DNA of 64,000 nucleotides. Source: Myxococcota bacterium. GTDB taxonomy: Bacteria > Myxococcota_A > UBA9160 > SZUA-336. Positions 24,592 to 54,418 of this stretch are shown here, in pieces (the stretch's first letter is position 1; each line of letters starts with the position of its first letter). The translations under genes were made by a program, and so were the position numbers. The notes below the pieces were generated by a model, which saw nothing but the letters and a program-made list of their open reading frames with translations, ran no database searches and was not told the origin of the DNA. Location of the stretch: positions 2,432,001 to 2,496,000 of the forward strand of contig CBDFGR010000003.1 in NCBI GenBank assembly GCA_965247115.1, given 5' to 3'.

Positions 24592-24625
24592 GACACTTGC
24601 CTGGTATCCTGGGGACCTGGGAGAG

Positions 24626-28043: not shown

Positions 28044-28085
28044 CCGGCGAGTACCCGAAGCAGCGGGAGTGTGTGGAGGGTCGAA

Positions 28086-28877: not shown

Positions 28878-28960
28878 CCCGTCACGATGGCAAGAATCTC
28901 TTTCTCTTCTCGGCGGTTACAGCCGACGGGGAAGGTTGAGAAACGATGTCAGCGGCTCGC

Positions 28961-33439: not shown

Positions 33440-33762
33440 TCTGAGCGTCGTGCGCCGTTTCCGAATCCAAGTGCTGGTAGTAGGTGTAGCCATCACCCGA
33501 ATTGAGATTCGCGCCAGGAGCGCTCGGCCCGAGCAATCGCCCGAGTTAAGGAGAAGCTCATACGCGGGGTGCTTGGAACCGGCTGCCCCTCATATGCAGT
33601 TCCTGGCCCCACGAGCACAAACGCGACAAGCGAGATGATGTGCGAGTTCCTCCAAATCAACGCGATGAGATGAGTGGGGTGGCCATTGCCCAACGGGCGA
33701 CCAGGGCCCCGCCACTCCATTTTGCCACTGTGCTCTACACTTCGCGTAGCCCGTAGCCGGGC

Positions 33763-34992
33763 CTAGCGGCCAATCAGCAAGTCGTCGATCAGCCGGGTGA
33801 GTTCACGAGCGAAGATCCTGTTGCCGAGCGGGGAAAAGTGGGCATTGCTGAAGAGGGGATCTTGGTCTCCACCAAGACGATCGGCTTCCCTTGCAAAGAC
33901 GGGCATGAGGTCGAGAACCTCGAGCCCAGCTTCGCGAAGCTGCCGCGTTAACGGCATCGAACTCACTCCGCGCCACCTGAAGATGAAATCAGGAGCGGGA
34001 AGCACAACGATCACCGGAATTGAACCGGCCGCGCTCGCCTCTTCGGCGAACGCTTTGGAGATGGCCACAGCCAACTCGTTCGCGATATTGAGCTCGCCCG
34101 AGTAGATATCCCGGTGGAGATTCCTTCGCCGCCAGCGATCGTGGACCGTGGCAACGACCCGAAGGGTTCGGATGTGGTACCACCATTTGAATTTCAGATC
34201 ACCCTGACGAATCCAGAATTCATAGTTGGGTTCCGGCAGAGTCTCGCTCGACATTTCCGCGATCATCTGCTCTCTGCCTCGAATCGGGGTATTGACGGCG
34301 CGCAGTTCCCCATCTTCCAATACGAAGCGCGGTTTCTCGCGTGGCAGCTCTCCGAATGTCAAGTAGTAGCGATTGATAGACAGAAGGCGGAAGAGATTGT
34401 CGGGCCAGATCCCAAAGATGGCCAGGTCTGCTTTGAATCTCTCTGCGTCGCGGCGCCAGCGCAGAAGAGCCTGGGAGGGCCCGTATCCTGGCACTCCGAA
34501 GTTCATGACCTCGACGTCAGGCCGCGATTCCTCCAATATGAAAGGCCAGGTGTCTTCGAAATCGACACGGGTAGCCCAGATCACGGAGTCCCCAACCGCT
34601 AGAAGTCGCAACTTGCCTTGGGGAACCTCCTCCTCGTAGATTCGGTCGCGTCTCGCATGCAAGAACTGCTTACTGACGTTGTTGTCTGGATCTTTGTTAA
34701 TCGGTATCCAGCCGAGGTCCTGATCACGCGCGAGAAAGGATGCTGCAGAAATGTGGTCCCAGGCTGCGGCTAATTGCTCCCGACTCGGACGATGCGGAAG
34801 AAGTTCCATCCTGGGTATGCTGGCTACCCCGCCAGTGCACAGCGTGCCGACAGGCGTGGTGCAGGTCATCAACCGCAGGAGCGCCTCCACTGATGTAGAT
34901 GCGACCATTAGCGAAAGCAAGGCTACAAGCAATTTGACTCGAGTTCGAGCCTTGCGTCTAGGAGTGGTAGCGTTTGAAAACTCGGTAGGCAT
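33763..34992 (-). CDS. Membrane-anchored SGNH/GDSL hydrolase-like protein
   Basis: TM + EALLR; AVGDS, NFGVPGYG..Q and AHFSPLGN motifs. Confidence 0.8.
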   Translation of the reverse strand: MPTEFSNATTPRRKARTRVKLLVALLSLMVASTSVEALLRLMTCTTPVGTLCTGGVASIPRMELLPHRPSREQLAAAWDHISAASFLARDQDLGWIPINKDPDNNVSKQFLHARRDRIYEEEVPQGKLRLLAVGDSVIWATRVDFEDTWPFILEESRPDVEVMNFGVPGYGPSQALLRWRRDAERFKADLAIFGIWPDNLFRLLSINRYYLTFGELPREKPRFVLEDGELRAVNTPIRGREQMIAEMSSETLPEPNYEFWIRQGDLKFKWWYHIRTLRVVATVHDRWRRRNLHRDIYSGELNIANELAVAISKAFAEEASAAGSIPVIVVLPAPDFIFRWRGVSSMPLTRQLREAGLEVLDLMPVFAREADRLGGDQDPLFSNAHFSPLGNRIFARELTRLIDDLLIGR

Positions 34993-35634
34993 GTTGCGTT
35001 TTAGATCCCATCGGGTCTACCCGAATGATAAGCGATGTTAAGCAGCATCCGAAACCGGAGGGCTCTACGACTGCGCACGCTCCGGCTCCCTAGCGGGAGG
35101 CGAATGGATCGTGAGTGGCCAGAGATTGCCGCCCCCGAGTCAAACCTAGTCCTCTGCCGCAGACGCAGTACCTGCGGACGAGGATGGGACTCGAGGCCCG
35201 ATCTTTGGCTTGACTTCTCGCAGTTGCTGACTTGGGCTAGACTCTATGAAGCGACCGGCTCCGTTCGCAACCTCCGTGCTCAGTGAGAAGCGGCCCTGGT
35301 CGCCGGCTCAAGAAGCTCCTCCTGCGTCGTGGCATCTGCTGTACAGCAGAGGTGCGCATGGACCTAGGCCCACCGCCAGTGGCTGCGAGGGTTAAGTTGG
35401 AGACGGGACGATCTGTCAGGAGGAGCCGGACTGAGCGAGCGTCGGAGCGCTGCATGCTTCCGCGGGATCGACACGCGGCGATCACGGTCGTGGCCGAGTT
35501 CCATGCCCGGCGACGCTATCTCGTCTGCGCGTGAGCGTCTGCCGTCTCCCTCTCCAACCTCAAGGATGCCCCATGAGCACGAAGCCTCGGCGGCTTGCCA
35601 GAAGGTCACTCCACATCAGCTAGCTAGAGACACC

Positions 35635-37173
35635 TTACTCGACAGCGCTCGTGATCTCGAAGAGGTCGTAGATCTGCTCCGTGTTGGGGAACGCGTAGAC
35701 CCGGTCGGGAAGGAGGGGAAGCGAAGTACCAAAATACTCGTTGAAGATGATCCGGAAGGTGTTGACGGGCGTCAGACTTGGGTGAAGTCCCTCCGCCTCG
35801 ACGCCAGGCAGGAGGAGGGCATTCAGGATCCCTGTCTTCTCGCGCAGTTCGTCTGGCGTTGTATCGCGCCAATCAATCAGCTTCTCGTCTGCAAAGATCC
35901 GGGCTGGGAAGGGCCCCTCGTCGGCTTGAATGATGATGATCGGTGCGACCTCGGACCTTCGGAGCAGAGTGTCGACGAGTTTGAGGATCTCGCCGTTGAG
36001 GAACTCGACTTGTCCGACGTAGTTGGTACGTCGATCCCGAAGCCGTTCCTCGGCCTTGCTCATGCAGTTTCCTTGTGCATCGACCACATAGGGCCAATGC
36101 GGGCTCAGTATGTGGGCGAAGACGAACAAGACTTCCTCGCTGGAGGCGATCTCCTTGAGCCGCTCAAACTTGAGCTTCACCCTCCTACACTGAACATCCC
36201 GATTGTTGACACCGGCCAAGATTCTGGTCCTTCGTGTGATGGGCCAGAACAAGGAGGATCGCAGCAGCGTCCTCGTAAACTCGTTCAGGTGCGCGTGTAT
36301 TTGGAGGTTCTCGTCGGCGTTCCGGTTCATGCGGGTGGGGTCCCACCAGGAACCCAGGTGTACGTAGCGATAGCCAGCACCGTGCAGGAGGCGCCCGACC
36401 TCGTGGTCCTGCATCAGGGCTCTCAACGGCTGCGTGTCGCTAGAATCCGGCCCCATCTCAGCCGCAAGTCGATCCAGATATTGCATATTGAGAGAAGAGG
36501 CCAGAGAGTGACCTGTTCTCAGGTAGTTCGACGCACTCCTAGAAGCGACGTAGAATCCTCTTGCTCGAAGTTGATCGAGAAATGGGGAGTTGTCGAAGCC
36601 GTAGCTCTCGGAGAGGACTCTCTGTGAGCCGTATCGGTCGAAGACCAGGAAGTAGACGCTCCGGGCCGGGCCGACGGGTATCAGTTCCGAGATAGGGAGC
36701 GCGAATTGCTCGGCGACATCGTACTCGTGGGTTCGTGCGAAGTGCGCCGCGAGCGAGACGGCCGGCATAATCACGAGGACCGCCGCGGCAATGTTTAAGA
36801 TGCGTGTGGCATCGACGAGAGTGGAGTTGCTCCGAGCGATCCACACGATGACCGTTGCAGAAGCGAGGACCCAAAGGGGGATTACGTAGCGGCCTTTGAG
36901 ACCGATCTCGATGACCGCATCGACCAGCTCGAAGACGTGGCCGTATGAGAACCAGGAGATGATCACGACGGAGGTGATCAATCCAGCCTTCCGCGCGCTC
37001 CTGAAGACCGCGTACACAACGGCGAAAGTAGCGACACCGAAGCCGAGAGAAAGGGAAAACCCAACCCAAGACTCCTCTGGCAGGAGAAGATCCGCTCCAC
37101 TTGCATAAAGCGCTAGCGGGGGATAAAGCGCCAGAAGAAACGGATGCGCGACGGGCGTGCGACGTCCAGACAT
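35635..37173 (-). CDS. Multi-TM sulfatase-like/LTA-synthase-fold protein (NoeB-like)
   Basis: Five TM segments, then VYFLVFDRY, SNYLRT.HSLASSLN, FAHILSPHWPY and IQADEGP motifs. Confidence 0.8.
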   Translation of the reverse strand: MSGRRTPVAHPFLLALYPPLALYASGADLLLPEESWVGFSLSLGFGVATFAVVYAVFRSARKAGLITSVVIISWFSYGHVFELVDAVIEIGLKGRYVIPLWVLASATVIVWIARSNSTLVDATRILNIAAAVLVIMPAVSLAAHFARTHEYDVAEQFALPISELIPVGPARSVYFLVFDRYGSQRVLSESYGFDNSPFLDQLRARGFYVASRSASNYLRTGHSLASSLNMQYLDRLAAEMGPDSSDTQPLRALMQDHEVGRLLHGAGYRYVHLGSWWDPTRMNRNADENLQIHAHLNEFTRTLLRSSLFWPITRRTRILAGVNNRDVQCRRVKLKFERLKEIASSEEVLFVFAHILSPHWPYVVDAQGNCMSKAEERLRDRRTNYVGQVEFLNGEILKLVDTLLRRSEVAPIIIIQADEGPFPARIFADEKLIDWRDTTPDELREKTGILNALLLPGVEAEGLHPSLTPVNTFRIIFNEYFGTSLPLLPDRVYAFPNTEQIYDLFEITSAVE

Positions 37174-37174
37174 C

Positions 37175-38554
37175 TCAACGACACCCGTAGAGGTAGACTG
37201 TACGCGACGTGCCTTCGAGTGGGGATCGTTCCTTTAGATCGAAGTGGGCACCGAATGCCTTCTCGAACGCTTCCTGAGTGTAGTGGGGGAAGATGTCGTC
37301 TCTACTGGCGAGTAGGCGCTGCGTCTGAGAATCCTCTTTCGGGACGAACTCGACGATCAGGTTCTCACAGAGGCCCCGCAGCCAGGCGGCGATGTTCGCC
37401 AGCGGCAAGTTGTTCCCGATCGCCAGGTGGTGGACCAGCGCTAGAGCCATCACGAGATCCGGCGGGCCGCGATCCTGCAGCGACATGCGCTCTGCGCCGG
37501 CCCAACCCAGTCCCGGACTCGGATTCGAGAGATCCATCACCAGCGGGAGGAGCCGCTGCTCTCTGCTTTGGCGCGCCTCTCGGTAATTCTGGTCAACCGC
37601 GCTCGGGTCGTAATCGAAGGAGACGGTATAGGCGCCGAAGTCGGCAGCGAGCCGGCTGAATACTCCCGTGTTGGCTCCTAGGTCCCAGACGGACGCGGGA
37701 CGGGTCTTGTCGATATAGCTCCGTACAACGGACTTCTTCTCGCTGAAAGAGCTATCCGAGTAGCTCGTCGCCCCGTAATAGTCGCCCCACTCCGTGGCTC
37801 CGGGGCTCCACTCCATTCGGCCAACGGCCGATTCGAGATTGTCAATGAGGCCCCGGAGAGCAGTGGGAGAGACCCCCCTGGTCCTCGCCTTCTGGGCGAC
37901 CTCGGGCGATCCCGCATAGCGGCCAAGTGAGCGCGCGTGAATGTGGATGTGTGTAAGAAGGGAGAACGAGAGGCGGCTCCGGAGAGGGAGCAGACGACTG
38001 GCCAGATCCAAAGGAACTCCATCTATGTTGGTGCGCATGAGCTTGAGCGCGTCGTGATGGCAGAGGCTCACGAGTGCGAGTGGAGCCAAGAAGTGGCGGC
38101 AGAACTGCTGGTAGGCCACCCACGGCTGTCCCTCTGGATAGATCTCGAACGAGAGGGTGTCGATGAAAACCGGCTTCGACCCCAAGAACTGAACGTTGTA
38201 GGCGCTTGCATCCTTCAGCCACATCCCCGCTTCGAGCGCCCTCTTCTGGAGGGCCAATGTGAGCAGAGCGGCTTCCTTGAGCTGGCTAAACGTCCACTCG
38301 TAGGGATACGAGATGAATGGAATGGGCTCGGGCCTCAGGAGCCTGTACGCGCCTTCCGTCCCCGGGACACTCGCCGGATCGACCTCCGAATGAGACACGA
38401 CGAGTCCAGCCTCGACGTTCGCTTGATGAAGACCTGACTCCATGAGGTGATCAAAATGGCGGCGATGGGCAGGCGCAACATATCGGTAGAGGAGCCCCCC
38501 GTGATGGAACAGGAAGCCGCTGGGATCCCGAAAGGAGCTAGTGATCCGCTCCAC
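37175..38554 (-). CDS. SAM-dependent methyltransferase, NoeA-like
   Basis: SFRDPSGF, ISYPYEW, LKDASAYNVQF, WDLGANTG and ALALVHHLAI motifs. Confidence 0.85.
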   Translation of the reverse strand: MERITSSFRDPSGFLFHHGGLLYRYVAPAHRRHFDHLMESGLHQANVEAGLVVSHSEVDPASVPGTEGAYRLLRPEPIPFISYPYEWTFSQLKEAALLTLALQKRALEAGMWLKDASAYNVQFLGSKPVFIDTLSFEIYPEGQPWVAYQQFCRHFLAPLALVSLCHHDALKLMRTNIDGVPLDLASRLLPLRSRLSFSLLTHIHIHARSLGRYAGSPEVAQKARTRGVSPTALRGLIDNLESAVGRMEWSPGATEWGDYYGATSYSDSSFSEKKSVVRSYIDKTRPASVWDLGANTGVFSRLAADFGAYTVSFDYDPSAVDQNYREARQSREQRLLPLVMDLSNPSPGLGWAGAERMSLQDRGPPDLVMALALVHHLAIGNNLPLANIAAWLRGLCENLIVEFVPKEDSQTQRLLASRDDIFPHYTQEAFEKAFGAHFDLKERSPLEGTSRTVYLYGCR

Positions 38555-38795
38555 GGTCGACTTCGGAAGCGGAACCGTCGTCCCGATGCGGTGGCGGATC
38601 GCTCGAGCCGAAACCAAGGCGCCCTCGGAGCTTGCGCCAGTAGATCTTGAGCGTGAAGAGGCCCGCCATCAGGCTTGCAAATGCCACTTGGAGCACCATG
38701 CTCCCGGTGCCGAGGTCGAGATAGGCGTGCGCGGACATCGGCCAAACCAACACCAAGACGCCACTTGCGCTCGCGAGTCGCAGTGCCTTACTCAT
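38538..38795 (-). CDS. Small membrane protein of the AYLDPGTGS type
   Basis: AHAYLDLGTGSMVLQ + TM + KIYWRK. Confidence 0.7.
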   Translation of the reverse strand: MSKALRLASASGVLVLVWPMSAHAYLDLGTGSMVLQVAFASLMAGLFTLKIYWRKLRGRLGFGSSDPPPHRDDGSASEVDRGADH

Positions 38796-38967
38796 CCTGC
38801 AGAGGCTAACTCGATTTCCCCAGACGAGTCAAAGTCGGCGCGCAGCTCCGGGATCCAACTCTGGGGATCGGTTGCCCTTACACAGCATCTCGCCGCCCCG
38901 GTCCTTTTCCAGCCTCAGGAGAACACCCCCCCCGAGCTGGCCCATCTTGCCGCCCAAGCACCCGCAA

Positions 38968-39687
38968 CTAGCCTCTCAGAACCGTCCTGTATCGTTGGTA
39001 CTCGGAATCTGGAAGCGATTCGACCATGACGCGTGCGGGCGTCCCAGAAGCTATTGACCGCGGGGGAATCGAATCTAGGACTACGGAGTTTGCCGCGATA
39101 ACGCTCTCGTGGCCTACCTCAACCGGTCCGAGAATCGCTGAGCCCGCGCAAACTATGACCCCGTCGCCGAGAGTCGGGCGGTGTAGGTTCCCGCTCCCAA
39201 CGCCAAGTGCGTCACCTACAGTGACACCCTGGTAGATCGTGACGTCCCGGCCAATCACGCAGCCTGAACCGATCACTGTTGAAAGGCCATGAATCAGCTT
39301 CAGCCCTGGTCCAATCTCGGCGGAGTAGTAGATCTCAGATCCAGTCATCGTTCGACCGAGGGCTGCGATGACATCTGGGATCTCGGGGACTTGGGCACGA
39401 TGTAGCTCGTGACTGAGTCGATAGAGATAGGTGGCGAGCAAGTTGGGAGCGAGCAGGAGCCGCTCAAAGAGATGCTCCGCGCTATCGAAGTTGGCCTGCC
39501 AGCGAGCCAAATCGGATTCGAATGCGGCAGCACTTGCAGCCACAGCTCCAACCCACTCCGGGTTTGCCCGAATTCTTCTCGGCGCGAGGAGACGCGTAAA
39601 CCGCTGGTAGGGCCCTGTAGCCAAGCACCCTCGGAGAAACCGACGAACCTTCCCGGGAAAGGCTGGCTTGTTCCACGATGACGGCAC
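38968..39687 (-). CDS. Serine O-acetyltransferase-like hexapeptide-repeat acyltransferase
   Basis: TGSEIYYSAEIGPGL.LIHG, IYQGVTVG, PTLGDGV and ANSVVL motifs. Confidence 0.85.
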   Translation of the reverse strand: MPSSWNKPAFPGKVRRFLRGCLATGPYQRFTRLLAPRRIRANPEWVGAVAASAAAFESDLARWQANFDSAEHLFERLLLAPNLLATYLYRLSHELHRAQVPEIPDVIAALGRTMTGSEIYYSAEIGPGLKLIHGLSTVIGSGCVIGRDVTIYQGVTVGDALGVGSGNLHRPTLGDGVIVCAGSAILGPVEVGHESVIAANSVVLDSIPPRSIASGTPARVMVESLPDSEYQRYRTVLRG

Positions 39688-39910
39688 GCTCTCTCCTCAG
39701 TTGGGGGCATCGTTTCACACTCTGGGCAACAAACGAGGTCGTCGCTTCGGCCCCCGGGACGGGAAGAGTGGATCGGACTATAGGCTGCCTGGGGGTGGAT
39801 TTCCGCAGTTCCTTCACTCCATGATACACTGAGACAGGAGTTTTCTTGCTGGGCTGTGACTCCATCCCGCGTACCAAGGTGACCCTCCTGGGGGCCCATC
39901 CAGACCTGGC

Positions 39911-41867
39911 ATGACAGAGACCATCCCAGAGATAGCCGACGACCTGTTCGCACAGGCAACGCTCATTCGCACGGTAGAACTTCGCCTGCTGGACCTGTTC
40001 TCCGAGGGAAAGCTCTCCGGCACCGTCCACACCTGCATAGGCCAGGAGTTCACTGGAATAGCCGTGTGCAGTTTCCTGGGGAACGACGATCTCATCTTCA
40101 GCAACCACCGGTGTCACGGGCACTTCCTTGCCCGCACCGGCGATGTAGACGGGCTGGTGGCGGAGGTCATGGGCAAGGAGTCCGGCGTCTGCGGGGGGCG
40201 GGGGGGCAGCCAGCATCTCTGCTCTTCGGGATTCTTCTCGAACGGTGTTCAGGGAAGCATCGTGCCTGTCGCGGCAGGTCTCGCATTGGCCAAGAAGCGA
40301 GACGGCGTAGGAGGAGTCGTAGTTGCCTTTATCGGAGATGGGACACTCGGTGAGGGCGTTCTCTATGAGACGCTCAACATAGCTTCCAAATGGCAACTGC
40401 CGCTTCTGATCGTCCTCGAGGACAACGGATACGCCCAGAGCACCCCGCAGAAGCAGTACATCTCGGGAGAGATACCTCTACGTGCGCGGGCGTTTGGGAT
40501 CGAGACTGGCACTACCGATACATGGGATCTCGAAGGTCTCTTCAACGACAGCAGAAAGGCGGTCGAGTTCGTCCGGCTCGAGGCAAGGCCGTATTTTCTC
40601 AAGATCCGATACGTATCGCCTTATGGCGCACTCGAAGGGCGATGACGATCGCGATCCCGGTGAGGTCCAAGGCTTCTGGGCAAGGGACCCCCTGACGCAG
40701 TTCCGTAGTCGTTCTCTAGATAAGGCTGACTCGTTTGAAGCGATCGCAACAAGTCGTGTTGAGGACGCTGTTGCTAGGGCGGAGAGCGCCTCGCACGCGA
40801 CGCTTCCCAAAGATCTGATACCCGTCGCATCCCGGAGTGTGGAGTGGCTACGAACTGACTTTGATTCACGCGACCGCGTGGTCAACAGGATCCACGCGGC
40901 CCTCAGGGCACGCCTGGAAGCGGACGAACGTGTATTCATCCTCGGCGAAGACATCGAGGGCCCGTATGGTGGGGCGTTCAAGGTAACCAAGGACTTGAGC
41001 TTGGAGTTTCCTGGGCGGCTCCGGAATACACCGATAAGCGAGGCCGCGATAGTCGGAATCGGCGCCGGCCTTGCCCTCGCCGGAAAGCTCCCCGTGTGCG
41101 AAGTGATGTTTGGTGACTTCCTGGCGCTCGCCTTTGACCAGATTCTCAACTCGGCCGCCAAGTTCAACTTCATGTACAACGAGCAGGTGGAGACTCCGCT
41201 CGTTATTCGCGCACCGATGGGGGGGAGGCGTGGGTACGGCCCAACCCACAGTCAGTCGATCGAAAAGCACTTCATGGGGATACCCGGAACGGTCGTTGTT
41301 GCGCCACATCACCGGTACGACCCAGCTCTGCTGTACGAGAGGATCCTGACGACCTGCAAGCGGCCCACGCTCGTAATCGAGAACAAGCTCCTCTACGGAG
41401 AGCGTATATCACCGGAGGTCGAGGACCAGTTCACCCTCGAGCACTCGAACGAGGGCCTCCCAACAACACGCATCCGCCCCGGAGTCGACCCCGATCTGAC
41501 GATAGTCTGCTACGGGGGAATGCTCCGCCAGGTAGAAGCCGCATTGGCGCCGCTCTTCGAGGACTACGAGATCCTTTGCGAAGTGCTGTGCCCGACCCAG
41601 CTTTACCCCTTGAACGCCGGCCCGATCCTCGACTCGGTGCGGCAGACGAGGCGTCTCCTGGTGGTGGAAGAGGGGATCGGTTTCGCCGCTTTTGGCTCCG
41701 AGGTGATTGCCCAGCTATGTGAGCTTCTAGGTCCGCTCCCGTTCAATGTGCGAAGACTCGCCAGTGCACCTGTGCCAATTCCCAGCTCCCCTCCTCTGGA
41801 AAGAGCTGTACTTCCGGGGACCGAGGACGTCGTCGAGGCAGCCCGCGCGACGGTCGGCGATGCCTAG
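39911..41867 (+). pseudogene. 2-oxoacid dehydrogenase E1 alpha+beta fusion with a +1 frameshift (lesion or sequencing error)
   Basis: GTVHTCIGQE, SNHRCHGH, GDGTLGEG..EDN; extra C at ~40607 (AAG ATC C GAT ACG TAT CGC) restores KIDTYRLMAHSKGDD; beta part has GEDI, NTPISE and GPTHSQ. Confidence 0.85.
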
Positions 41868-43149
41868 TTCGGTCGAAGTAAGAGCGCCTCGTGAGAATGT
41901 GAATGACGAGTTTATAACTGTAGTGAAGTGGTACGTAAGGAGCGGAGATCACGTAGAGAAGGACCAGCTCATTGTGGAGGTGGAAAGCAGCAAAGCGATC
42001 CTAGAGCTGACGTCCCCTGCTGCTGGCTTTGTTCTGGTCCACTGCGAAGAGGATGTCGATGTGGCCATCGGAACCGTATTGTGCGAGATCGGCGAGTCGC
42101 GATACTCGTCCGTCGACTCGGCGGTAGGGGCGAAGGAGAGCTCGGAAGAGCGACATCCCCGTTTCAGCAAGAAGGCAAGTGAGCTGATCGCTGCGCGCTG
42201 TATAGGATCTGAGGCGTTTGAAGGGCTCCAGTTCGTTCGCGAACGGGACGTGTTCGCTGCGGTAGGGGAGGCACCTGATCCAGGGTCTCGAGTGGAACGG
42301 GGAGGGCGCTCGCGGAAGGCGAGGGCGTCCGACGAGTGCGGGGGAGTTCCCTACACCACTCAAAGACTCTCGCCGAGCAAACGAGCTGAGGGGCGACTTC
42401 TCCGCACGGCGCGAGACCAGAGCGTCCAAGCGGGAGTCACGACTTCGATCCGAGTGCCCGGTCTGATGGAGGGTGCCCGCGCTCATCCTCACATGGGCGG
42501 CAGCATCACCCCGCTCTTGGTCTATGAGGTTGCTCGCCTCTTGCGAAAGTACCCGATCTTGAATGCATTCTGCGACGGTGATTCCGCATGCTTGTATGAG
42601 GATGTGAACGTGGGCGTCGCCGTTGACTCTGGTGAGAGCCTGAGAGTTCCTGTGATTCATCGCGCCGACGCCAGGGGCCTTGCTGCGATCTCGCAGGATG
42701 TACGGGAGGCGCTGGTCGACTATGTAGAGGGTCGGTTGACGCCTGAGCAGGTGACTGGAGGTACGTTCACGATCGCGGATTTATCTGGCGAAGGAGTCTT
42801 GCTGAATCACCCAGTTCTCAATCAGGATCAGTCGGCAATCCTTGGAGTGGGAAGCGATCGAGGACGGGATGACGTGGATATCCTCAACTTCACACTTGCC
42901 TACGACCACCGGCTTACAGAGGGGGTTACGGCAACCCGTTTCCTCAGAGACCTCGAACACCGTCTGGTCGGTCACCAAGAAGCGCTTCGACAGATCGCAG
43001 GTGACGAGTTCGCAAGCGGTGAACCCACGTGTCAACGTTGTTTCCGGGGCGTTGCAGAGCTCGAACGCCAAAATCACTTCGTGGTTCAGACACTGGGTCG
43101 AGACGGCCAGACGGTGCCCATTTGCTCCTCTTGCCTGCAGGGCTGGTGA
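41860..43149 (+). CDS. Dihydrolipoamide acyltransferase (E2)-like with C-terminal CxxC...CxxC
   Basis: Lipoyl domain VEVESSKA; subunit-binding-like PRFSKKA..VRERDV; GGTFTI, YDHRLTEG; CQRC..CSSC. Confidence 0.85.
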   Translation: MPSSVEVRAPRENVNDEFITVVKWYVRSGDHVEKDQLIVEVESSKAILELTSPAAGFVLVHCEEDVDVAIGTVLCEIGESRYSSVDSAVGAKESSEERHPRFSKKASELIAARCIGSEAFEGLQFVRERDVFAAVGEAPDPGSRVERGGRSRKARASDECGGVPYTTQRLSPSKRAEGRLLRTARDQSVQAGVTTSIRVPGLMEGARAHPHMGGSITPLLVYEVARLLRKYPILNAFCDGDSACLYEDVNVGVAVDSGESLRVPVIHRADARGLAAISQDVREALVDYVEGRLTPEQVTGGTFTIADLSGEGVLLNHPVLNQDQSAILGVGSDRGRDDVDILNFTLAYDHRLTEGVTATRFLRDLEHRLVGHQEALRQIAGDEFASGEPTCQRCFRGVAELERQNHFVVQTLGRDGQTVPICSSCLQGW

Positions 43150-43970
43150 TGAGCGTCCCCGACTCACTCCGCGCCGCGGTTGCCGAATTCTTCAACGTTG
43201 ATTCGGAATTGATCACGGACGACTTCCCTCTCTCAGGCCCTCGGCTCGTCAACTCGATTGCGCGCGCGAAACTTGATGCTGTGATTCGACGCCGGACAGG
43301 CCTCCGATCCGATGCCGCCTATGTCGCTCACACCTATGGAGAACTGGAGGGTCGTCTCCTTCGCCCTCATGCAGTTCAGGTGCCCGGAGATTCTGAAGCA
43401 AGCGTTGCTCGGCATACCGGCGTCTCGGTTCCAGTCTTCCAGGCAGGTCTCTCGTGCGGCATCGACATCGAGGACATCGAGAACCTTCCCGAGGCCAGTG
43501 ACTACTGGGAAGATGACTTCTACAAAGCCAACTTCTCTCCGGCCGAGATCGCCTACTGCGTGGCCCAAGATGATCCACGTGAACACTTCGCAGTGAGGTG
43601 GGCAGCGAAGGAAGCGCTGGCTAAATGCGATCGGCAGCTGGTCGCCGCAGGCTTCGCGGGGGTTGAGATGGTGTCGTCATCTCAGGCAGCACCAACTATG
43701 CGAAATAGCGCGACTAAGCAGTCTCTGCCGGTAGCCGTCAGCGTCTCTCACAGTGCTCGTGCCGCGGTTGCCATCGTAGTTTGGGGAGGTGGGACCACCA
43801 AGGTAGAGACGATCAGTGGACCGCCCGACGAAGGCGAGTCTACCGATCTGAGTAAAGAGGATGACGGCAGGGCGGGCCTGATCTCTTGTCAACGGAAAAC
43901 TAGGTGGCCTGTTGCAGCCGTTGTCGCGGTCGTTGGAGTCTCGATCTACGCTCTCTGGCTGGCCCGCTAG
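43149..43970 (+). CDS. Acyl-carrier-like domain fused to a holo-ACP synthase (AcpS-type PPTase) with C-terminal TM
   Basis: ACP-like N-terminus (LVNSIARAKL); GIDIE, FSPAEIAYC, RWAAKEA and VSVSHS motifs; hydrophobic tail; TGATG overlap with E2. Confidence 0.8.
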   Translation: MSVPDSLRAAVAEFFNVDSELITDDFPLSGPRLVNSIARAKLDAVIRRRTGLRSDAAYVAHTYGELEGRLLRPHAVQVPGDSEASVARHTGVSVPVFQAGLSCGIDIEDIENLPEASDYWEDDFYKANFSPAEIAYCVAQDDPREHFAVRWAAKEALAKCDRQLVAAGFAGVEMVSSSQAAPTMRNSATKQSLPVAVSVSHSARAAVAIVVWGGGTTKVETISGPPDEGESTDLSKEDDGRAGLISCQRKTRWPVAAVVAVVGVSIYALWLAR

Positions 43971-43995
43971 GCCGCCACCAGTTTAATGCGTTGTC

Positions 43996-45042
43996 TCATA
44001 GGTTAGTCCTCATGCGCTCCGCGTCGGCATCGAGATCTCCAGTAAGTCTCGAGAGCCAGGCGAGCCGATTGCGAAGCCACACGCGCAGCTCGATCCTGCG
44101 CCTCAGTCCCGAACTCGACGCGAGCTGGGCCGACTTCCGCATGCGCTCGAGAAGGAAGTATAGGTAGGCGAGGAGCGCAAAGGACGCCGAGCTCCCATGC
44201 AGCGTGTACTCGTCCCAGAATGTTTGCCAGAGCTCCGATGCGCGGCGGCCGGCGGCTGCGGTGCGAACGCCGTCGTATTCGAGCGCATGGTGCATGCACG
44301 AGACGTCGTGCTCCATAGGGCCGAAACCGAAGCCCTCCATGTCGAGCGCATAGAGAACGCCGTCGACTCCCATTAGGAAGTTCTTCGGCCTCGCGTCCCC
44401 GCGGGTCGGGTATTCGCGGTGCATGCGAGCGACGTCTGCGTCTCCGAGTCGTCGCACGTACCTCTCCACGTGGCGCACGAGGTGCTCCAATTCATCGGCC
44501 GCCCCCAGAGCGGACTTCAACGCCCCGGCGCGCTCCCGGATCTTGTCAAGGTAAGTGAAGGGATCGAGGCCCCCGTCTGCGCGAGCACCCCGGGCGCGAA
44601 ACACTCCGAGCCAACGAGCGATGTGTCTCGCTTGGCCGCGAGCCTCCTCGACGGGGCGCGAGCGATGCCAGCCGAGCACGGCTCGATCGATGATCGTTCG
44701 GGTGAGCTCTCCAGGTTGGTATCGGGTGACCAGGAAATTGGGACCGGTCCCCCACCCGAGGGGCTGCACGACCCCCAGATCGGCGGTCGAATCTGAAGTG
44801 ATCTCACTGAGAAGCCCCGTGGCGAACTCCAAGGCTTTCTGCTCGTGCGCCGGCGAGTAAGGGTCGGAGTCCACTTTCACCACGTAGAGAGGATCGGGGG
44901 CTCCCCGCGTCGCGACGTAGAAGATCATGCTCTTGTAGTGCCGTGTCTTGAATCTTCGGGGAAGAACCTGCATGTCGGCCTCCCTGCAATCGAGATCGGC
45001 GGCGCAGATCTCGATTGCCTCGGGCGGTAGTCGTGTGGTCAT
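43996..45042 (-). CDS. Protein-kinase-like (APH family) phosphotransferase
   Basis: YVVKV, RGDARPKNFL and LDME motifs. Confidence 0.7.
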   Translation of the reverse strand: MTTRLPPEAIEICAADLDCREADMQVLPRRFKTRHYKSMIFYVATRGAPDPLYVVKVDSDPYSPAHEQKALEFATGLLSEITSDSTADLGVVQPLGWGTGPNFLVTRYQPGELTRTIIDRAVLGWHRSRPVEEARGQARHIARWLGVFRARGARADGGLDPFTYLDKIRERAGALKSALGAADELEHLVRHVERYVRRLGDADVARMHREYPTRGDARPKNFLMGVDGVLYALDMEGFGFGPMEHDVSCMHHALEYDGVRTAAAGRRASELWQTFWDEYTLHGSSASFALLAYLYFLLERMRKSAQLASSSGLRRRIELRVWLRNRLAWLSRLTGDLDADAERMRTNL

Positions 45043-45397
45043 CCCATTCCTTGTCCGCGCAACTTCCTATCCGACCTCCGAGCCAACAATATCCCGTACT
45101 CATCTGAGTCTCTACACGGCTCCTAGGACGCTCAGCCATCCTGCATTCTGATGGACTCTAGTCTAGGCTACCGGCAAGCTGTTGGTGATTCTGTGAAGGC
45201 TCAGGAGCTTTCGGAGAGCATCCTGCTAGCCGACGGATCAAGATGTCTATGAATCGTGCCGAGGTGGGCGAGCTATTGATTCCCCGCAGACCGGAATCGC
45301 TTCGGACGCCCGATCGCACGGGAAGCGAGAGGGTCTCTGAGGCAAGGTCGAACTCTCGCAATGGATCCAACCGGATGAAAACCCTCGGTTTGGGCGA

Positions 45398-46780
45398 ATG
45401 AGGTCGAACGAGTGCATTCCGGGGCACAACTCTCCGCCGAGGTACACCGCTCGAGAAGTCGGCAGCCTTCTCGTCCTTCTGATCGGGATCGCGATAGTCG
45501 GATCCAGCCTCGTACTCAACCCGTGGATCGCTCGACTGTGGCAAGGTCCCTTCGTAGTCGACAAGATTGACGTTCTCTGGAAATACTTCGTTTCGAGCCT
45601 CACCCTTGGCTCCGCGACTGTAGTTCTAAGCTGGGCGCTCCGACGATCCCTGGCGAGGCGGATCGACAAGCTTACAGTGCTCTTTGTGATCTGCACGGCG
45701 ATCTTTCTCGGAGATCGACTTCTGCTGGTTAGGTCCGGCTTACCACTCTGGACCTACGACTCGCAGCTCCACTTCCGCCACCGTCCAGGTGCGGTGCGAA
45801 CCTTGAAGCAATCGAGGCCACCGGGAGATCTGATCCGTATAAACTCTCATGGCTTCCACGACGAAGAATTCGATGAAGAGAAGGGTCGGCGTGAGTTGCG
45901 GGGACTCGTGATCGGGGACTCAGTGACGATGGCATACGGCCTTACCTATAGAGAGACGTTTAGTTCGCACCTCGAGCGACTCCTTGAGACTAATATCGAG
46001 TTCTATTCCTCGTTTCAGATAATCAACACAGGAGTCCATGGCTACGGAACCTCGCAGGAAGTACAAGTACTTCGAGATGCGATGCGATTTGATCCGGACT
46101 TCATCGTCGTTGGTTTCTGCATGAATGACGTGACTGAACCGTTCGTAGTTCGACGCGGGCTCGGAGGTGTTGGCTTCGACTACCATGGAATTCGAGAGGC
46201 CGCAAATCCTTTGTACGGTTATCTCGTCAACGAGACGGGACTGGGCCGGTTCACTCTGCAACTAAAGTGGCGTGCACGGAGGCTCGAGGCAGCCAAACTG
46301 CAAGAGGTCTGGGATGTTAGACAGATGTCCCAGAGCTCTCGACTAGATCCGCCATTCGACAGAGCGTGGGAACTCGTACTGTCGGATCTGGAAGAGATGT
46401 ATGAACTCGCCCAGATCCACGACATCCCAATCGTTCTGTTGATCTTTCCGCTCAGCTTTCAGCTGGTTGACGATCAGCTCCGAATGCCCCAGGAGGTCCT
46501 CAAGGGTCATGCGGCAGATCAAGGAGTCGAGGTTATCGACCTCACCGATAGGTTCAGCGAGCTTGTGTTCTCGGATACGGAGACACTTACTTTCTTACGT
46601 CGGAGGGGCTACGGAGCGGAGGAGATCGAGCAGTTCTTTCAGTGGAGAATCAGTACCTACTTCCTTGACGCTGACCACTTCACCGACGTAGGGCACCAGG
46701 TCATCGCGGAAGCTGTCTTTAACTACCTAAGTACGGATCTGCTGAGTTCGAAACGAGAACCAGTAGGCCCTGCATCTTGA
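45398..46780 (+). CDS. Membrane-bound SGNH/GDSL hydrolase family protein
   Basis: Three TMs; INSHGF.D, IGDSVT, NTGVHGYGT.QE, CMND and DADHFT..GH motifs. Confidence 0.85.
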   Translation: MRSNECIPGHNSPPRYTAREVGSLLVLLIGIAIVGSSLVLNPWIARLWQGPFVVDKIDVLWKYFVSSLTLGSATVVLSWALRRSLARRIDKLTVLFVICTAIFLGDRLLLVRSGLPLWTYDSQLHFRHRPGAVRTLKQSRPPGDLIRINSHGFHDEEFDEEKGRRELRGLVIGDSVTMAYGLTYRETFSSHLERLLETNIEFYSSFQIINTGVHGYGTSQEVQVLRDAMRFDPDFIVVGFCMNDVTEPFVVRRGLGGVGFDYHGIREAANPLYGYLVNETGLGRFTLQLKWRARRLEAAKLQEVWDVRQMSQSSRLDPPFDRAWELVLSDLEEMYELAQIHDIPIVLLIFPLSFQLVDDQLRMPQEVLKGHAADQGVEVIDLTDRFSELVFSDTETLTFLRRRGYGAEEIEQFFQWRISTYFLDADHFTDVGHQVIAEAVFNYLSTDLLSSKREPVGPAS

Positions 46781-47331
46781 TAATGATTCGGTCGCACGGT
46801 CAGTGATATGCCTGTAGAAGACTCGCCGATATCCGTTCCCGTTCGCAGGTTTCTCGGCGGTTGCGTGCATGCCGCTACCATGGAACAGGCGGTGGAGATC
46901 TGCCGTGGCGCGATAGCCGGCAAAGGCGGTCTTACGATAGCTGTTGTCAATGCTGCGAAGCTCGTCAACATGCGACATGACCCCGCTCTGCGGGAGGCTG
47001 TTCGCTCGGCCGGGCTGATTCTGGCCGATGGAATCGGCGTGGTCTGGGCGAGTCGCCTATTGGGCGCGCCACTCCCTGAGCGCGTAACTGGAATCGATCT
47101 CTTCCTCGAACTCCTGGAGCTCGCTGATCGCGAGCGGTTGTCAGTCTACTTCTTGGGTGCCAAGACGCTAGTCCTCGAAGACATGCTTCGGCGAGTGCGC
47201 GAACGTCACGTGGGCCTCCGCGTGGCCGGCCATCGCGATGGCTACTTCGGGGCCGAAGAGGCAGAAGAGGTGGCGCATGAGATCAGTGCGGCGGACGCCG
47301 ACATCCTATTCGTAGGCATCTCCACCCCTAA

Positions 47332-48606
47332 CAGGCTGCGGAGAAAGTGACTGGTTGAGGGGTGGTCCTTCCGACGAGGGGGTTCACCGGCCGAGGGGCG
47401 GGGCGCGATTCCCGGTTCGAACCGGTCTTGGGCTCCGCTGATCGCGGGGCGGTTTCGCACATGACCTACGTGGCCTCCAGCAGCTTGCGGATCCGGATCA
47501 GGTTGTAGGCTGCGGCCGTGAAGGTGAAGACCCAGCCGACCCGATCCGTGCCGCGGTGTCGGGTCTTGCGCATCAGCCCCACGGTCTTCATCCAGCCGAA
47601 GACCTCTTCCACCCGTTTGCGAAAACGCTGACTCAGTTCGTAGCCCCGGTGGCGCGTCGTCCGCCCGTCGATCGCGCTGCGTCGATTCGTCGTGTTCTGC
47701 GCCACGTGTGGGGTCACGCCCAACTCTCGAAGCTCTTCCACGAACCCCTTCGTGTCGAAGCCCTTGTCTCCGCCCAATGTCCTCCGACGCCCGCCTCCCA
47801 GACCTTCCACCATCTCGAGCGCCGCTTCGCGCTCCGCATATCCCGACGCCTGCGTGAGCTTCGCCGCGACCACCAAGCCGTTCCGGTTCTCCGTCACCAC
47901 GTGTCCCTGGTACGCGAGTCGGGCGCCTTGGCCTCTCATACCGGCGAGTCGTGCGTCGGGATCCGTCGTCGACGCATGCGTCTGGTTGCTCCGCTTCTCG
48001 CCTCGGAAGTTCACCGTCGGGTTGCCCGGGTCATCGTCGTCTCTCCGTTCCTCGTCCTTCCGTACGAAGCTCTTCTGGCTCGCCCACGCCTCGATCAGCG
48101 TCCCGTCTACCGTGAAGTGCTCCAACGACACCCATCCCTCGGTCTCGGCCTGCTCCAGCACTGCGTCGAAGAAGTGCTCGGCAATCTCGCCCTTGAGCAG
48201 CCGGTCTCGGTTCTTCGTGAACACCGTGGCGCTGAACACCACCTCGTCAAGCTCCAGACCCACGAACCAGCGATACAGCAGGTTGTACTCCAGCTGCTCC
48301 ACCAGCTGCCGCTCGCTCCGGATGGTGTAGAGCACCTGCAGCAGCAGGGCGCGCAGCAGCTGCTCCGGGGGCACGGACGGGCGCCCTACGCCTCTGGCGT
48401 AGATCGCGTCGAAGCGCGGCGATAGCCGCTGCAGCGCCGTGTCGACCATGCGCCGCATCGCTCGAAGCGGATGATCATCCGGAATCCGCGACTCCAGCGA
48501 CACGTAGCTGAACATCCCGCCCTGAAGCGTCCCCTGTCCTCTCACGCCTCCCCCTTTGGGGCTCGCTCCCAAGGTACCCTTCGATGAGGAGTTTTTCAGC
48601 AGCCTG
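47332..48606 (-). mobile_element. IS5-family (DUF772/DDE) insertion sequence, 1275 bp
   Basis: TIRs CAGGCTGCGGAGAAAGT / CAGGCTGCTGAAAAACT (14/17 match); CTAA target duplication at 47328-47331 and 48607-48610. Confidence 0.93.
47466..48545 (-). CDS. IS5-family transposase
   Basis: MFSYVSLE.RIP.DHPLR, GRPSVPPE, VDGT, GDKGFD, RKRVEEVFGW and YNL motifs; GGGAGG RBS before GTG. Confidence 0.93.
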   Translation of the reverse strand: MRGQGTLQGGMFSYVSLESRIPDDHPLRAMRRMVDTALQRLSPRFDAIYARGVGRPSVPPEQLLRALLLQVLYTIRSERQLVEQLEYNLLYRWFVGLELDEVVFSATVFTKNRDRLLKGEIAEHFFDAVLEQAETEGWVSLEHFTVDGTLIEAWASQKSFVRKDEERRDDDDPGNPTVNFRGEKRSNQTHASTTDPDARLAGMRGQGARLAYQGHVVTENRNGLVVAAKLTQASGYAEREAALEMVEGLGGGRRRTLGGDKGFDTKGFVEELRELGVTPHVAQNTTNRRSAIDGRTTRHRGYELSQRFRKRVEEVFGWMKTVGLMRKTRHRGTDRVGWVFTFTAAAYNLIRIRKLLEAT

Positions 48607-48963
48607 CTAAGAAGGAGCTGTTTCTGAGGCGGTACGGCGCGCGCATGGGGGTCGGAGTTTCGCATGGTGTGGGGGGTGCCTTCGACATCCTTGCCGGAAA
48701 GACTCGCCGTGCTCCAGTTGCTTGGCAACAGCTTGGTCTCGAGTGGCTCTATCGCCTGTGGCAAGAGCCGCGCCGTATGTTGAAACGGTACGCCATCACC
48801 AACACCCGCTTTATCGCGATGGTGGCGGCAGAGTGGATTCGCCGGAGATTGCAACACTAGTCATGAGATACGTTGAGGAACTGTGGATGGTCGGCCGCGC
48901 GCAGGCGCGACTGTGGTCAGCTTCGACCTCCGTTGGTGCGAGCGCGCTGTAACGTGGAACGTC

Positions 48964-50154
48964 TTAGACGGAGAGGACCTGGGGTGTGAGCCCCATTCTG
49001 TCGAGCTCGATTGTTATCTCGTTACGATAGATTGGATTCATGAGGATCACTGCGTCGGGCTGGTAGCTACGAAGGGCGCCGGGGGCTACGATTTCCTGCC
49101 CCGTACCTGCCTGGAATTTGCCTTGCTTTCGCTCGTTTATGTCGACGACGTACTCGATCTCGTCATGGACACGGAGAGTCGCGAGGAAGCCGGCCGCTTT
49201 CGAACCCGATCCCCATACGGCCATGCGTTTCCCCTGGGCGCTTAAGTCGTCGAGCTTTTGCCGCCAGCGCTTCACCTCCTGGGAGACGTTCCGAGAGAAC
49301 CTCTCAACGCTTGCGAGCACCTCTTCGAGGTCGTCTTCTCCGGGTAGAGGAGCGGCCCTCGGCTCTGGGCCAGAAGTTGCAACGATAGTCAGGTACTGAT
49401 CGTCATAAACTCTGTCGAGCTCCAGAATCTGATGGTCGCAGGAGCGAAACAGACGCGCCAACGATCCCAAGCTGAAGTAGCTACAGTGCTCGTAATAGAG
49501 GTCCCAGAATGCGTTCTCGGAAAGAATGCGGGTGACGTCGGGAACCTCGAAGAATATTCGCGCGCCAGGCCTGGCGCTAGCGGAACCCCGGATCATCTGT
49601 ATGAACGCTCTTGGATGCGCTACGTGCTCTAGCGTGTGACGGCACGCGAAGAAGTCACCGAGCGTGCCCAAGTCCTGTCCGCCATAGAGTTCTCTCACGA
49701 GGGTCACGCGATTGTCTTGCCGGGCTTGCTGATTTGGGGGAGTTAGCGGGTCAAACCCTAATCCGAGATTATCTCCGAGTTCGCAGATCGCTCGCAGGAA
49801 CTCACCGCTGCCGGATCCGATCTCGATGATGGTCTTTTCCCGCAGTCCATGGCGCTCGATGAGTCCATCGCACAGCCCGCGTAGGTACCTGGAGAAGTGC
49901 GGCGAGAATGCTTGGGAGGTCTCGTAGGCCGACTCAGGGACTTGAGTGGGTTCCTGGAAGAGTGAGTTGGCGATGAACCCGCAGACCTCGCAGATCACCA
50001 GCTGCAGGTCCATCCTCGGGAAGGCTAGCGCAGCCTCTCGTGAATCCAGCAGCACAGTGCTCTCGACGGGAATGTCGGACACTTCGTAGAAGACCCGCAG
50101 CCGATCCGCGCCGCAAGCACGGCAGAGGTCAGATGCGATCACACCGCCTCCCAT
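48964..50154 (-). CDS. NDP-sugar C-methyltransferase-like (Zn-binding N-terminus), copy 1
   Basis: CRAC..CEVC, EIGSGSG, RHTLEH, YYEHCSYFS, WGSGSK and DINERKQGK motifs. Confidence 0.85.
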   Translation of the reverse strand: MGGGVIASDLCRACGADRLRVFYEVSDIPVESTVLLDSREAALAFPRMDLQLVICEVCGFIANSLFQEPTQVPESAYETSQAFSPHFSRYLRGLCDGLIERHGLREKTIIEIGSGSGEFLRAICELGDNLGLGFDPLTPPNQQARQDNRVTLVRELYGGQDLGTLGDFFACRHTLEHVAHPRAFIQMIRGSASARPGARIFFEVPDVTRILSENAFWDLYYEHCSYFSLGSLARLFRSCDHQILELDRVYDDQYLTIVATSGPEPRAAPLPGEDDLEEVLASVERFSRNVSQEVKRWRQKLDDLSAQGKRMAVWGSGSKAAGFLATLRVHDEIEYVVDINERKQGKFQAGTGQEIVAPGALRSYQPDAVILMNPIYRNEITIELDRMGLTPQVLSV

Positions 50155-50193
50155 CGTACGCCGATCTTGCCAACGCGATGGCCTGAAGGTGTC

Positions 50194-50856
50194 TTAGTTG
50201 GTGGGACGAAGTACACCGAGTTTGAGCTTCGGGGCGTAGAAGGCTTCCGCGTATCTGCTGGGCGAGCGACATTCCATTCCCCTCAGCCGCAGTAAAGAGT
50301 AGAAGGTGTCCTCGGTAAACCAGTCCCGTCCGTGTTGGCTCTCAAAGCACGTGTAGAGAGCTTCGAATTTTCGCTGGCAGATCTCCTGGGATAGCGGGAC
50401 AAAGACGTTTGGTGCTCCGAGATCTCCGTCCCACTTCGGGATTTCGTACTCGAGAATCAGATGATCGCGGAAGCTGCTCCAGGTCAGCTCCGAGATGAGA
50501 CGGTGATCCTGGTGGAGGTCGCCACGCTGGTGGGTGAGGATGAGATCGGGCGAGAACTCGCGCTTGAGCCTCTCGAAGTACTCCTTGATGGCGGTACCAC
50601 AGTAGGGAAAGAAGCTCTCCCGAAACTCCTCAACGGCGATGTGCCTGGACCGGGCCTGTGAAAGAAAGATCTCCGCGGACTTCAGGGCCTCTCTCTTTCG
50701 TTGCTCATCCGATGCAAAGACGACCCAGTAGACCTCTGCGCTGGGGACCTGCTCGAGGATTGTGAGAATGGTCCCCCCACAGCCGATCTCGATATCGTCA
50801 CAGTGTGCGCCCAGGCACAGGATCCGATCCACACCCGTGGGATGGAGCTCAATCAT
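50194..50856 (-). CDS. PIG-L/LmbE family deacetylase
   Basis: GAHCDDIEIGCGG, DLHQDH and YAEAF motifs. Confidence 0.9.
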   Translation of the reverse strand: MIELHPTGVDRILCLGAHCDDIEIGCGGTILTILEQVPSAEVYWVVFASDEQRKREALKSAEIFLSQARSRHIAVEEFRESFFPYCGTAIKEYFERLKREFSPDLILTHQRGDLHQDHRLISELTWSSFRDHLILEYEIPKWDGDLGAPNVFVPLSQEICQRKFEALYTCFESQHGRDWFTEDTFYSLLRLRGMECRSPSRYAEAFYAPKLKLGVLRPTN

Positions 50857-52129: not shown

Positions 52130-52131
52130 TA

Positions 52132-53361: not shown

Positions 53362-53378
53362 GTGCGATCCGCATTTGG

Positions 53379-54383: not shown

Positions 54384-54418
54384 GCGGGAAGTGGAATGTT
54401 GACGTCGGTCTTCGATCA

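Follow-up and report, generated by a model that had tools for sequence, protein, structure and literature searches.

Several non-ribosomal peptide synthetase (NRPS) clusters load a short acyl group onto a carrier protein by means of an E1/E2 enzyme pair. The systems QncN/QncL/QncM, NapB/NapD/NapC, RenH/RenI and SclQ1-4 with SclP have in common a thiamine diphosphate (ThDP)-dependent E1, lipoyl and acyltransferase domains and a dedicated acyl carrier protein (ACP), as far as they are described in PMC6335953, PMC7570522 and PMC13249901. The same glycolyl-ACP scheme has been described for SclQ1-4 together with the phosphopantetheinyl transferase (PPTase) SclP (PMC6335953) and, with xylulose-5-phosphate being used, for NapB/NapD (PMC7570522), while RenH/RenI have been assigned to the supply of a glycolic two-carbon unit from ketoses by homology to Qcn7/Qcn9 (PMC13249901). 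In Photorhabdus, the pepteridine E1 and the E2-T-C protein Plu2796 have been proposed to prime a carrier instead of coenzyme A (CoA), with the E3 provided by the host (PMC5384830). In this study, we analysed a 64,000-nt stretch (the window) of contig CBDFGR010000003.1 of a Myxococcota bacterium (assembly GCA_965247115.1, positions 2,432,001 to 2,496,000), in which consecutive genes for an E1, a lipoyl-E2 and an ACP-AcpS fusion, here called the cassette, lie within a surface-glycan region. Our analysis indicates that this is probably an acyl-supply cassette of the QncN/L-RenH/I type, in which a short acyl group would pass to the cassette's own carrier, then to a hexapeptide enzyme and finally to a sugar of a surface glycan.

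The cassette genes share one strand, with E1 at 39911..41867, E2 at 41860..43149 and ACP-AcpS at 43149..43970. The end of E1 (stop codon 41865-41867) overlaps the start of E2 (ATG at 41860), and the TGA of E2 and the ATG of the ACP gene have base 43149 in common; these overlapping codons bear out the translational coupling claimed when the locus was first noted. The features of the cassette are as follows.

39911..40645, plus strand: alpha part of E1, with the ThDP motif GDGTLGEG, shortened by a frameshift (PF00676, E 6e-35; RenH 56% over 225 aa)
40606..40607, plus strand: surplus C that shifts the E1 frame, just 5' of the conserved DTYRLxAHSKGDD loop (sequence, homologue spacing and contigs)
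40608..41867, plus strand: rest of E1, comprising the alpha active-site loop, the linker and the entire beta part (PF02779, PF02780; RenH 43% over 420 aa)
41860..43149, plus strand: E2, 429 aa, with lipoyl K45, a subunit-binding-like segment, an acyltransferase domain with D349-H350 and a CxxC...CxxC tail (PF00364, PF00198)
43149..43970, plus strand: 273-aa fusion of an ACP (residues 1-75, Ser36), a linker, an AcpS-type PPTase and a C-terminal membrane helix (PF01648, alignments, models)

As in scl, the cassette has a dedicated PPTase, and RenH is a fused alpha-beta protein encoded directly before RenI, as in the family studied here. The cassette differs from the QncN/RenH group in that its ACP is fused to the PPTase and usually to a membrane helix, its E2 has a four-cysteine (Cys4) tail, and its partner is usually a hexapeptide acyltransferase in a glycan locus rather than an NRPS condensation domain. 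No NRPS domain was found among the 33 window open reading frames (ORFs) scanned with Pfam, so that a condensation domain as acceptor is absent from the window, although it is present in one relative (L135; related loci are cited by our L numbers). Because the acceptor in the window is not an NRPS, the cassette would work like QncN/L/M without being a plain member of that group.

Searching 72,556 plasmid records with an E1 of the family gave RenH of the renieramycin cluster as the top match (48% over 98% of the length), followed by a Streptomyces NRPS/polyketide synthase (PKS) cluster with the order ACP-E1-E1-E2 (42%); the other 34 rows shown lay at 34-37%. The alpha part in the window, at 56% to RenH, reached no more than 40% with catabolic E1s and the E1s of its own genome. 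In a careful tree of 30 alpha rows, from which 28 family rows were omitted for speed, 15 cassette rows, RenH and two NRPS/PKS-cluster E1s separated from 12 others with support of 100/100, and RenH was nested within the cassette group at 99/95; the quick tree gave a support of 100 (SH-aLRT). Quick trees gave 100 for the beta part and 99 for E2 with RenI (SH-aLRT), the latter with a long-branch warning for RenI with L013. Five motifs (GTxHTCxGQE, GGSQH, GDGTxGEG, PYGGAFK and RGYG(P/A)THSQ) are common to the family, RenH and the Streptomyces NRPS/PKS E1 and are not shared with 9-10 other E1s. NCBIfam cut-offs for housekeeping enzymes were far from reached by the beta part (189 of 321 bits) and E2 (133 of 722), for which the comparison is fair since both are whole, the alpha part being shortened by the frameshift. 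The E1 thus groups with RenH and not with housekeeping dehydrogenases, and these comparisons place its alpha and beta parts in the QncN/L/M-RenH/I clade, with RenH as proxy for QncN/NapB. The original analogy to QncN/QncL/QncM, with E2 and carrier kept, was the right one. Antibiotic-cluster enzymes such as RenH may derive from the glycan family. Outside the clade, another acsA-E1-E2-ACP cassette without E3 was observed on Ralstonia and Leisingera plasmids (L176 2175-7368, L179 3289-8375), and a Paenibacillus plasmid PKS cluster in a sister clade (L182 4453-13327) combines E1, E2, two ACPs and a methyltransferase and might produce a methylated two-carbon unit.

The third gene had been described as an ACP-like domain with its own PPTase and a membrane tail, and each of these parts was recovered. 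The N-terminal 75 residues have no Pfam match, but their model (pLDDT 86) superimposes on E. coli ACP with a Z of 9.2 and an rmsd of 2.2 over 71 residues, the top 50 entries of the fold search are nearly all carrier domains, and Foldseek concurs with weak E-values. The profile built on this domain matches ACPs of the PDB (best E 2.9e-4). Ser36 opens the second helix and is the sole invariant column of 37; a Ser stands at this position in 147 of 150 profile matches, and 101 of the 105 matches of at least 200 aa also carry the AcpS motifs. The PPTase part scores 55 bits against the PF01648 (ACPS domain) cut-off of 25, its motif residues G104-D106-E108 and W151-K154-E155 are all invariant in 45 homologues, and its fold matches are AcpS and fungal fatty acid synthase PPT domains. 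The C-terminal helix is hydrophobic (mean hydropathy 2.17). A universal membrane tail was rejected, such a tail being present in 41 of 45 sequences of the homologue alignment set but in 34 of 50 in the loci. The N-terminus thus has a genuine ACP fold, and an intact AcpS and a membrane tail follow in the same protein.

The E2 had been predicted to be a lipoyl protein with an intact catalytic His and a CxxC/CxxC tail, and the alignment of 120 homologues agrees: K45 is conserved in 117, D349 and H350 in all 120, and the four tail cysteines (C391, C394, C422 and C425) in 116. The segment between the E2 domains is also conserved. The best match in a 39-protein reference set is RenI (E 1.7e-45), with which E2 has the motif TxxDL in common, whereas 11 other E2s have TxS/N. 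The Cys4 tail, for which neither a Pfam match nor a usable ESM Atlas match was found, occurs in 52 of 63 locus E2s and is absent from RenI. Across 62 complete non-redundant loci, tail and ACP-AcpS fusion occurred together in 51 and were both missing from six, with the fusion alone in four and the tail alone in one. On this correlation, the tail would probably bind zinc and help to dock the ACP-AcpS protein. In L009 (8722-10001), the E2 tail itself seems frameshifted, with the last CxxC in another frame.

If the cassette serves glycan decoration, its relatives should lie among glycan genes. We ran Pfam on 143 and then 109 of the 295 neighbouring proteins within 5 kb (about 50 distant ones were dropped and a few extras added). 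The comparison covered 41 non-redundant loci flanked by 4 kb or more, a set to which the window belongs. Glycan genes were present within 5 kb in 29 (one of which, L126, rests on an epimerase-profile match that is possibly an ordinary dehydrogenase) and a hexapeptide gene in 27, at 1.2 kb or less in 26; 66 stand-alone AcpS loci from the same search gave 10, 2 and 0, respectively, in a comparison that favours the cassette side, as the local profiles run over all loci were built from labelled neighbours of the cassette itself. The association with glycan loci is thus present among the homologues and strongest for hexapeptide acyltransferases. Since hexapeptide genes are common in glycan loci, gene order was shuffled within loci: in 20 of 24 loci the hexapeptide gene lay directly beside the cassette, against a shuffled mean of 7.1 and maximum of 15 (none of 2000 shuffles reached 20), a figure inflated by related loci that are not independent. 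Glycosyltransferases in the same loci were adjacent in 10 of 24, against 10.9 in the shuffled order. A single dedicated hexapeptide clade as the partner was rejected. Six or more types can be told apart among the partner acyltransferases (WcaF-like, EpsC-like, a group without a name, Vat/phn-like, NeuD/PglD-like and a hexapeptide-ACP fusion), and so the pairing appears to have arisen or been renewed several times.

Gene fusions point in the same direction. L119 encodes a carrier-AcpS-PglD_N-hexapeptide fusion (NeuD/PglB model 199 bits, cut-off 160.8) next to an initiating sugar transferase; the gene directly behind E2 in L125 encodes a hexapeptide-like protein that ends in an ACP; in L135 (9995-15562), E2-ACP-C-A-PCP-TE form one protein of 1856 aa behind a family E1; and in L157 (6371-11490), a 76-aa ACP follows E2, with a DltB-like membrane-bound O-acyltransferase (MBOAT) upstream (183 bits, below the cut-off of 375). 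In each of the four, the predicted domain order places a carrier between E2 and an acyl-transferring enzyme. Several observations concern these loci in their own right. In L119 (8121-13884), the carrier-AcpS-PglD fusion is followed by a 1403-aa FAD/NAD-binding-adenylation-carrier-PglD fusion, giving two carrier-fed sugar N-acyltransferases in tandem. L135 appears to be an uncharacterised one-module acyl-amino-acid assembly line. L157, L162 and L169 represent a variant without tail or AcpS fusion, in which a small canonical ACP follows E2. In L111 (14266-15255), L130 (3209-6054) and L094 (2889-3596), the cassette lies beside NeuB and cytidylyltransferase genes, making these loci candidates for acylated nonulosonic acids.

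Taking these results together, we propose the following route, in which the domains, residues, clade and gene associations are read from the sequences and every reaction is deduced from them. The AcpS domain would place phosphopantetheine on Ser36 of the fused ACP, which the C-terminal helix would anchor at the inner membrane. The fused E1 would use ThDP to take up a two-carbon unit, for which a ketose phosphate is the most likely donor in view of the E1 clade and the RenH/Qcn literature. The unit would then be oxidised onto lipoyl-K45 of E2 and passed by H350 to the ACP thiol instead of CoA, a transfer consistent with the conserved residues and the E2-ACP fusion in L135. A housekeeping E3 would reoxidise the lipoyl arm in trans: the genome holds several lpdA-like genes and lipA, and no lpdA-like gene was found in the window, as had been claimed, or in the 91 related loci, many of which are short. 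Finally, the neighbouring hexapeptide enzyme would N- or O-acylate an NDP-sugar or a lipid-linked glycan at the inner membrane face, as the associations and fusions suggest. Glycolyl is the likeliest acyl group, given the position of RenH within the family and the redundancy with acetyl-CoA that a private supply of acetyl would bring, but we regard this choice as tentative. The most specific form of the proposal, in which a ketose-splitting E1/E2 loads a self-priming membrane ACP-AcpS and the WcaF-, EpsC- and NeuD/PglD-like hexapeptide enzymes are glycolyl-ACP-dependent transferases, is a little more speculative again.

The E1 gene of this strain is broken. The frame that begins at 39911 stops at 40645 (244 aa), and the remainder lies in another frame, which carries DTYRLMAHSKGDD, the linker and the beta part to 41867. 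The fused alpha-beta E1 originally predicted is therefore split over two frames here, although the ThDP motif and the PF00676, PF02779 and PF02780 domains stand as claimed, and E1 is fused in all 56 relatives' loci in which the alpha start is present. One extra C can be located at 40606-40607, because the spacing from Pro to Arg in the loop is nine residues in 115 of 119 homologues. Contigs from three of four runs cross this site without gap or difference, at a depth of 3-4, and speak against a one-off assembly slip; the runs come from one sample, probably the source DNA, and are not independent of the assembly. Two other possibilities were rejected: a programmed frameshift (the frame is unbroken in the relatives at 56/56 loci, and only a TTT-C run and a small stem-loop at chance level were found) and a second intact copy in the genome, where four other E1 alpha/beta pairs all fall outside the clade. 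The His of the E1 loop serves reductive acylation in E1 enzymes; because the break parts this loop from the ThDP domain, the E1 copy, and with it the cassette of this strain, is probably inactive. A split enzyme initiated at the first ATG of the second frame (40623), which would give 414 aa, may nevertheless be active, and a public collection calls a 414-aa protein. A promoter scan gave nothing that exceeds shuffled sequence.

In addition to the two biases named above, several points weigh against the proposed route. With the E1 of the window frameshifted, the proposal fits the family more than this copy, and it is for the family above all that the clade and the glycan association support the carrier-bound C2 (acetyl or glycolyl) unit of the original prediction. 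Glycan genes are missing within 5 kb in 12 of the 41 loci and a hexapeptide gene is missing in 14, and the hexapeptide gene of the window is on the strand opposite to the cassette. Several partner types belong to families annotated as acetyltransferases (WcaF-like, EpsC-like), and such enzymes, as far as is known, use acetyl-CoA. The role of RenH is itself an assignment by homology. A survey of a bacterial glycan database describes N-glycolyl as mainly mammalian (PMC2543016), and bacterial glycans are reported to contain glycolyl rarely (PMC2543016, PMC5378307). Pepteridine E1/E2 are described as loading a carrier from 2-oxo acids without E3 (PMC5384830); glycolyl is thus not forced.

The last point leads to a variant within our preferred explanation, sharing its likelihood with glycolyl as the smaller part: the route to carrier and glycan would be the same, but the donor would be a 2-oxo acid (pyruvate, 2-oxobutyrate or another), yielding acetyl, propionyl or another short acyl. 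We consider this possible but doubtful. The pepteridine E1 and E2-T-C fusion use alpha-keto acids without a cluster E3 (PMC5384830), delivering the acyl group to a pterin by a C domain; L135 has a like E2-carrier-C fusion, and the partner transferases resemble acetyltransferases. However, RenH is nested in the family with active-site motifs in common, and a private source of acetyl would probably bring little benefit to a cell with abundant acetyl-CoA and four other E1 pairs in its genome.

It is unlikely that the product is an unusual acyl-CoA, such as glycolyl-CoA, used by CoA-dependent hexapeptide transferases, with ACP-AcpS storing, editing or relaying the acyl group. A CoA ester that diffuses freely would more easily explain the pairing with many unrelated hexapeptide types and the E2s of L138 and L140, which have no carrier gene directly behind them. 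Against this, 55 of 62 complete loci have the ACP-AcpS gene behind E2, its Ser is kept almost throughout, the carrier is fused to the transferase in L119 and L125, and the TxxDL motif is that of RenI rather than the TxS/N of the other E2s. Slightly less likely still, the cassette would be a mobile supplier of acyl-ACP for the biosynthesis of small molecules or lipids, and its presence in glycan islands would be incidental. The patchy distribution (no full fusion cassette in 40 relatives and one weak match in 300 genomes of the phylum), the 12 loci without glycan genes and the NRPS fed in L135 would suit such a history, whereas adjacency specific to hexapeptide genes and not to glycosyltransferases in the same loci, and the L119 protein, which joins the carrier and a sugar N-acyltransferase and is encoded next to an initiating sugar transferase, argue against it.

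The original prediction had also pointed to AviB1/B2 and YerE, in which case E1 would add a two-carbon branch to a 4-keto sugar by a C-C bond. ThDP enzymes do handle two-carbon units in this way in sugar pathways, AviB1/AviB2 (Pau11/Pau12) being described as an alpha/beta pair (with AviO2) and YerE as a single flavoprotein (PMC4425429), and the window has NDP-sugar dehydratase-like and C-methyltransferase genes. The published account describes those enzymes without E2 or carrier (PMC4425429), whereas the cassette keeps both in one operon, with a conserved lipoyl-E2 and its catalytic residues, all needless for a carboligase; the analogy fits poorly and we regard this explanation as very improbable. 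An ordinary 2-oxoacid or acetoin dehydrogenase of central metabolism, suggested by automatic names (2-oxoisovalerate dehydrogenase E1) and by an E3-binding Pfam domain in 13 of 119 listed E2 homologues, is largely refuted by the separate clade, the scores far below the NCBIfam cut-offs and the lack of E3 in the 91 loci.

The proposed transfer step has parallels in other surface polymers. The Dlt system puts a carrier-bound small acyl group on a surface polymer by means of the carrier DltC and the MBOAT DltB, to be compared with L157, and loads its carrier by an adenylating ligase; no MBOAT was found among the 33 window ORFs scanned with Pfam. LpxA/LpxD use acyl-ACP. In Flavobacterium psychrophilum, WfpD/WfpG, an O-polysaccharide-specific ACP and a PglD homologue, are predicted to N-acylate a UDP-amino sugar (PMC6519341); there, too, a hexapeptide-type transferase would take its acyl group from a dedicated ACP, but the group is made by fatty acid synthase II-like enzymes, in place of the ThDP/lipoyl pair of the cassette. 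Each half of the proposed pathway has a precedent: E1/E2-to-ACP transfer in NRPS clusters and the predicted ACP-fed PglD homologue for O-polysaccharide (PMC6519341). A description of an E1/E2/ACP cassette in a polysaccharide locus was not found in the literature covered, which excluded most subscription journals and supplements; PMC13721041 likewise yielded nothing of relevance. The combination of a QncN/L-type supply with glycan acylation, together with the ACP-AcpS-membrane fusion and the Cys4 tail, is likely to be new.

The cassette lies in a region of lower GC content that contains the following further features.

21628..62856, no strand assigned: lower-GC glycan region with the cassette (GC 0.56-0.63, against 0.65-0.68 in the first 20 kb; Pfam)
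38968..39687, minus strand: hexapeptide-repeat (left-handed beta-helix) acyltransferase, EpsC/CysE/WcaB-like, divergent from the cassette (PF00132)
43996..45042, minus strand: APH-family phosphotransferase, convergent with the cassette (ESM Atlas features 0.99 to PF01636 clusters; no Pfam match)
47332..48606, minus strand: IS5-type element with a CTAA duplication, inside wecG (Pfam DUF772/DDE)

The hexapeptide acyltransferase, whose best NCBIfam model is EpsC (132 bits, below the cut-off of 150), is the likely acceptor enzyme. The phosphotransferase had no tblastn match in 80 genome loci and is not a recurring neighbour. The glycan region also contains GT2/GT4 glycosyltransferases, NDP-sugar epimerases, nucleotidyltransferases, a GHMP kinase, three C-methyltransferases, WecB/WecC/WecG-like genes and SGNH proteins; the neighbours are as first reported, Pfam having found a hexapeptide protein, two SGNH proteins and NDP-sugar enzymes. 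The region shows decay besides the frameshift: wecG (46808-47331, resuming at 48609) is cut, a break overlooked in the original prediction, by the insertion sequence, of which the genome has 28 copies longer than 1 kb, those printed being 100% identical, a sign of recent expansion. The minus-strand genes at 35635-38795 encode an 85-aa protein with a signal-like start, a methyltransferase-like protein and a membrane sulfatase-like protein. At 48964-53382, three genes that resemble NDP-sugar C-methyltransferases stand in a row with one for a PIG-L deacetylase, suggesting methyl-branched sugars. The protein encoded at 63204-63872 ends in a sorting motif that we take to be PEP-CTERM-like, and exosortase genes flank the cassette in L112, L114, L150 and L156.

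The family is widely scattered. The cassette was present in 11 of 80 genome loci, from six named phyla (Planctomycetota, Verrucomicrobiota, Nitrospirota, Elusimicrobiota, Bacteroidota and Actinomycetota), and its gene order was unchanged in the 80 best metagenome loci for E2; the 91 loci and the window form 70 groups at 85% identity. The E1 beta half has matches in at least 745 proteins at E 1e-120, and the ACP profile in 183 clusters (50% identity) at E 1e-10. An Elusimicrobia-like branch (L007, L138, L143 and L145) has a convergent gene for a 318-359-aa protein and a polysaccharide deacetylase, and its E2 is tail-less in L007, L138 and L143.

Bacterial glycans carry many unusual acyl groups for which the enzymes have not been identified. 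If the cassette supplies glycolyl-ACP, it would provide a gene signature for glycolyl modification in poorly cultured phyla and a non-oxidative bacterial route for the N- or O-glycolylation of sugars, including glycolylated nonulosonic acids (L111, L130); N-glycolyl legionaminic acid has been considered possible in Tannerella, in a report that calls it so far undescribed among bacteria (PMC5378307). An ACP that is fused to its PPTase and primes itself would, in addition, offer a compact tool for the glycolylation of sugars. If our proposal is true, it corrects the annotation of at least 745 proteins, many of them with housekeeping-type names, re-opens the donor specificity of hexapeptide 'acetyltransferases' and ties glycan tailoring to the biosynthesis of tetrahydroisoquinoline antibiotics.

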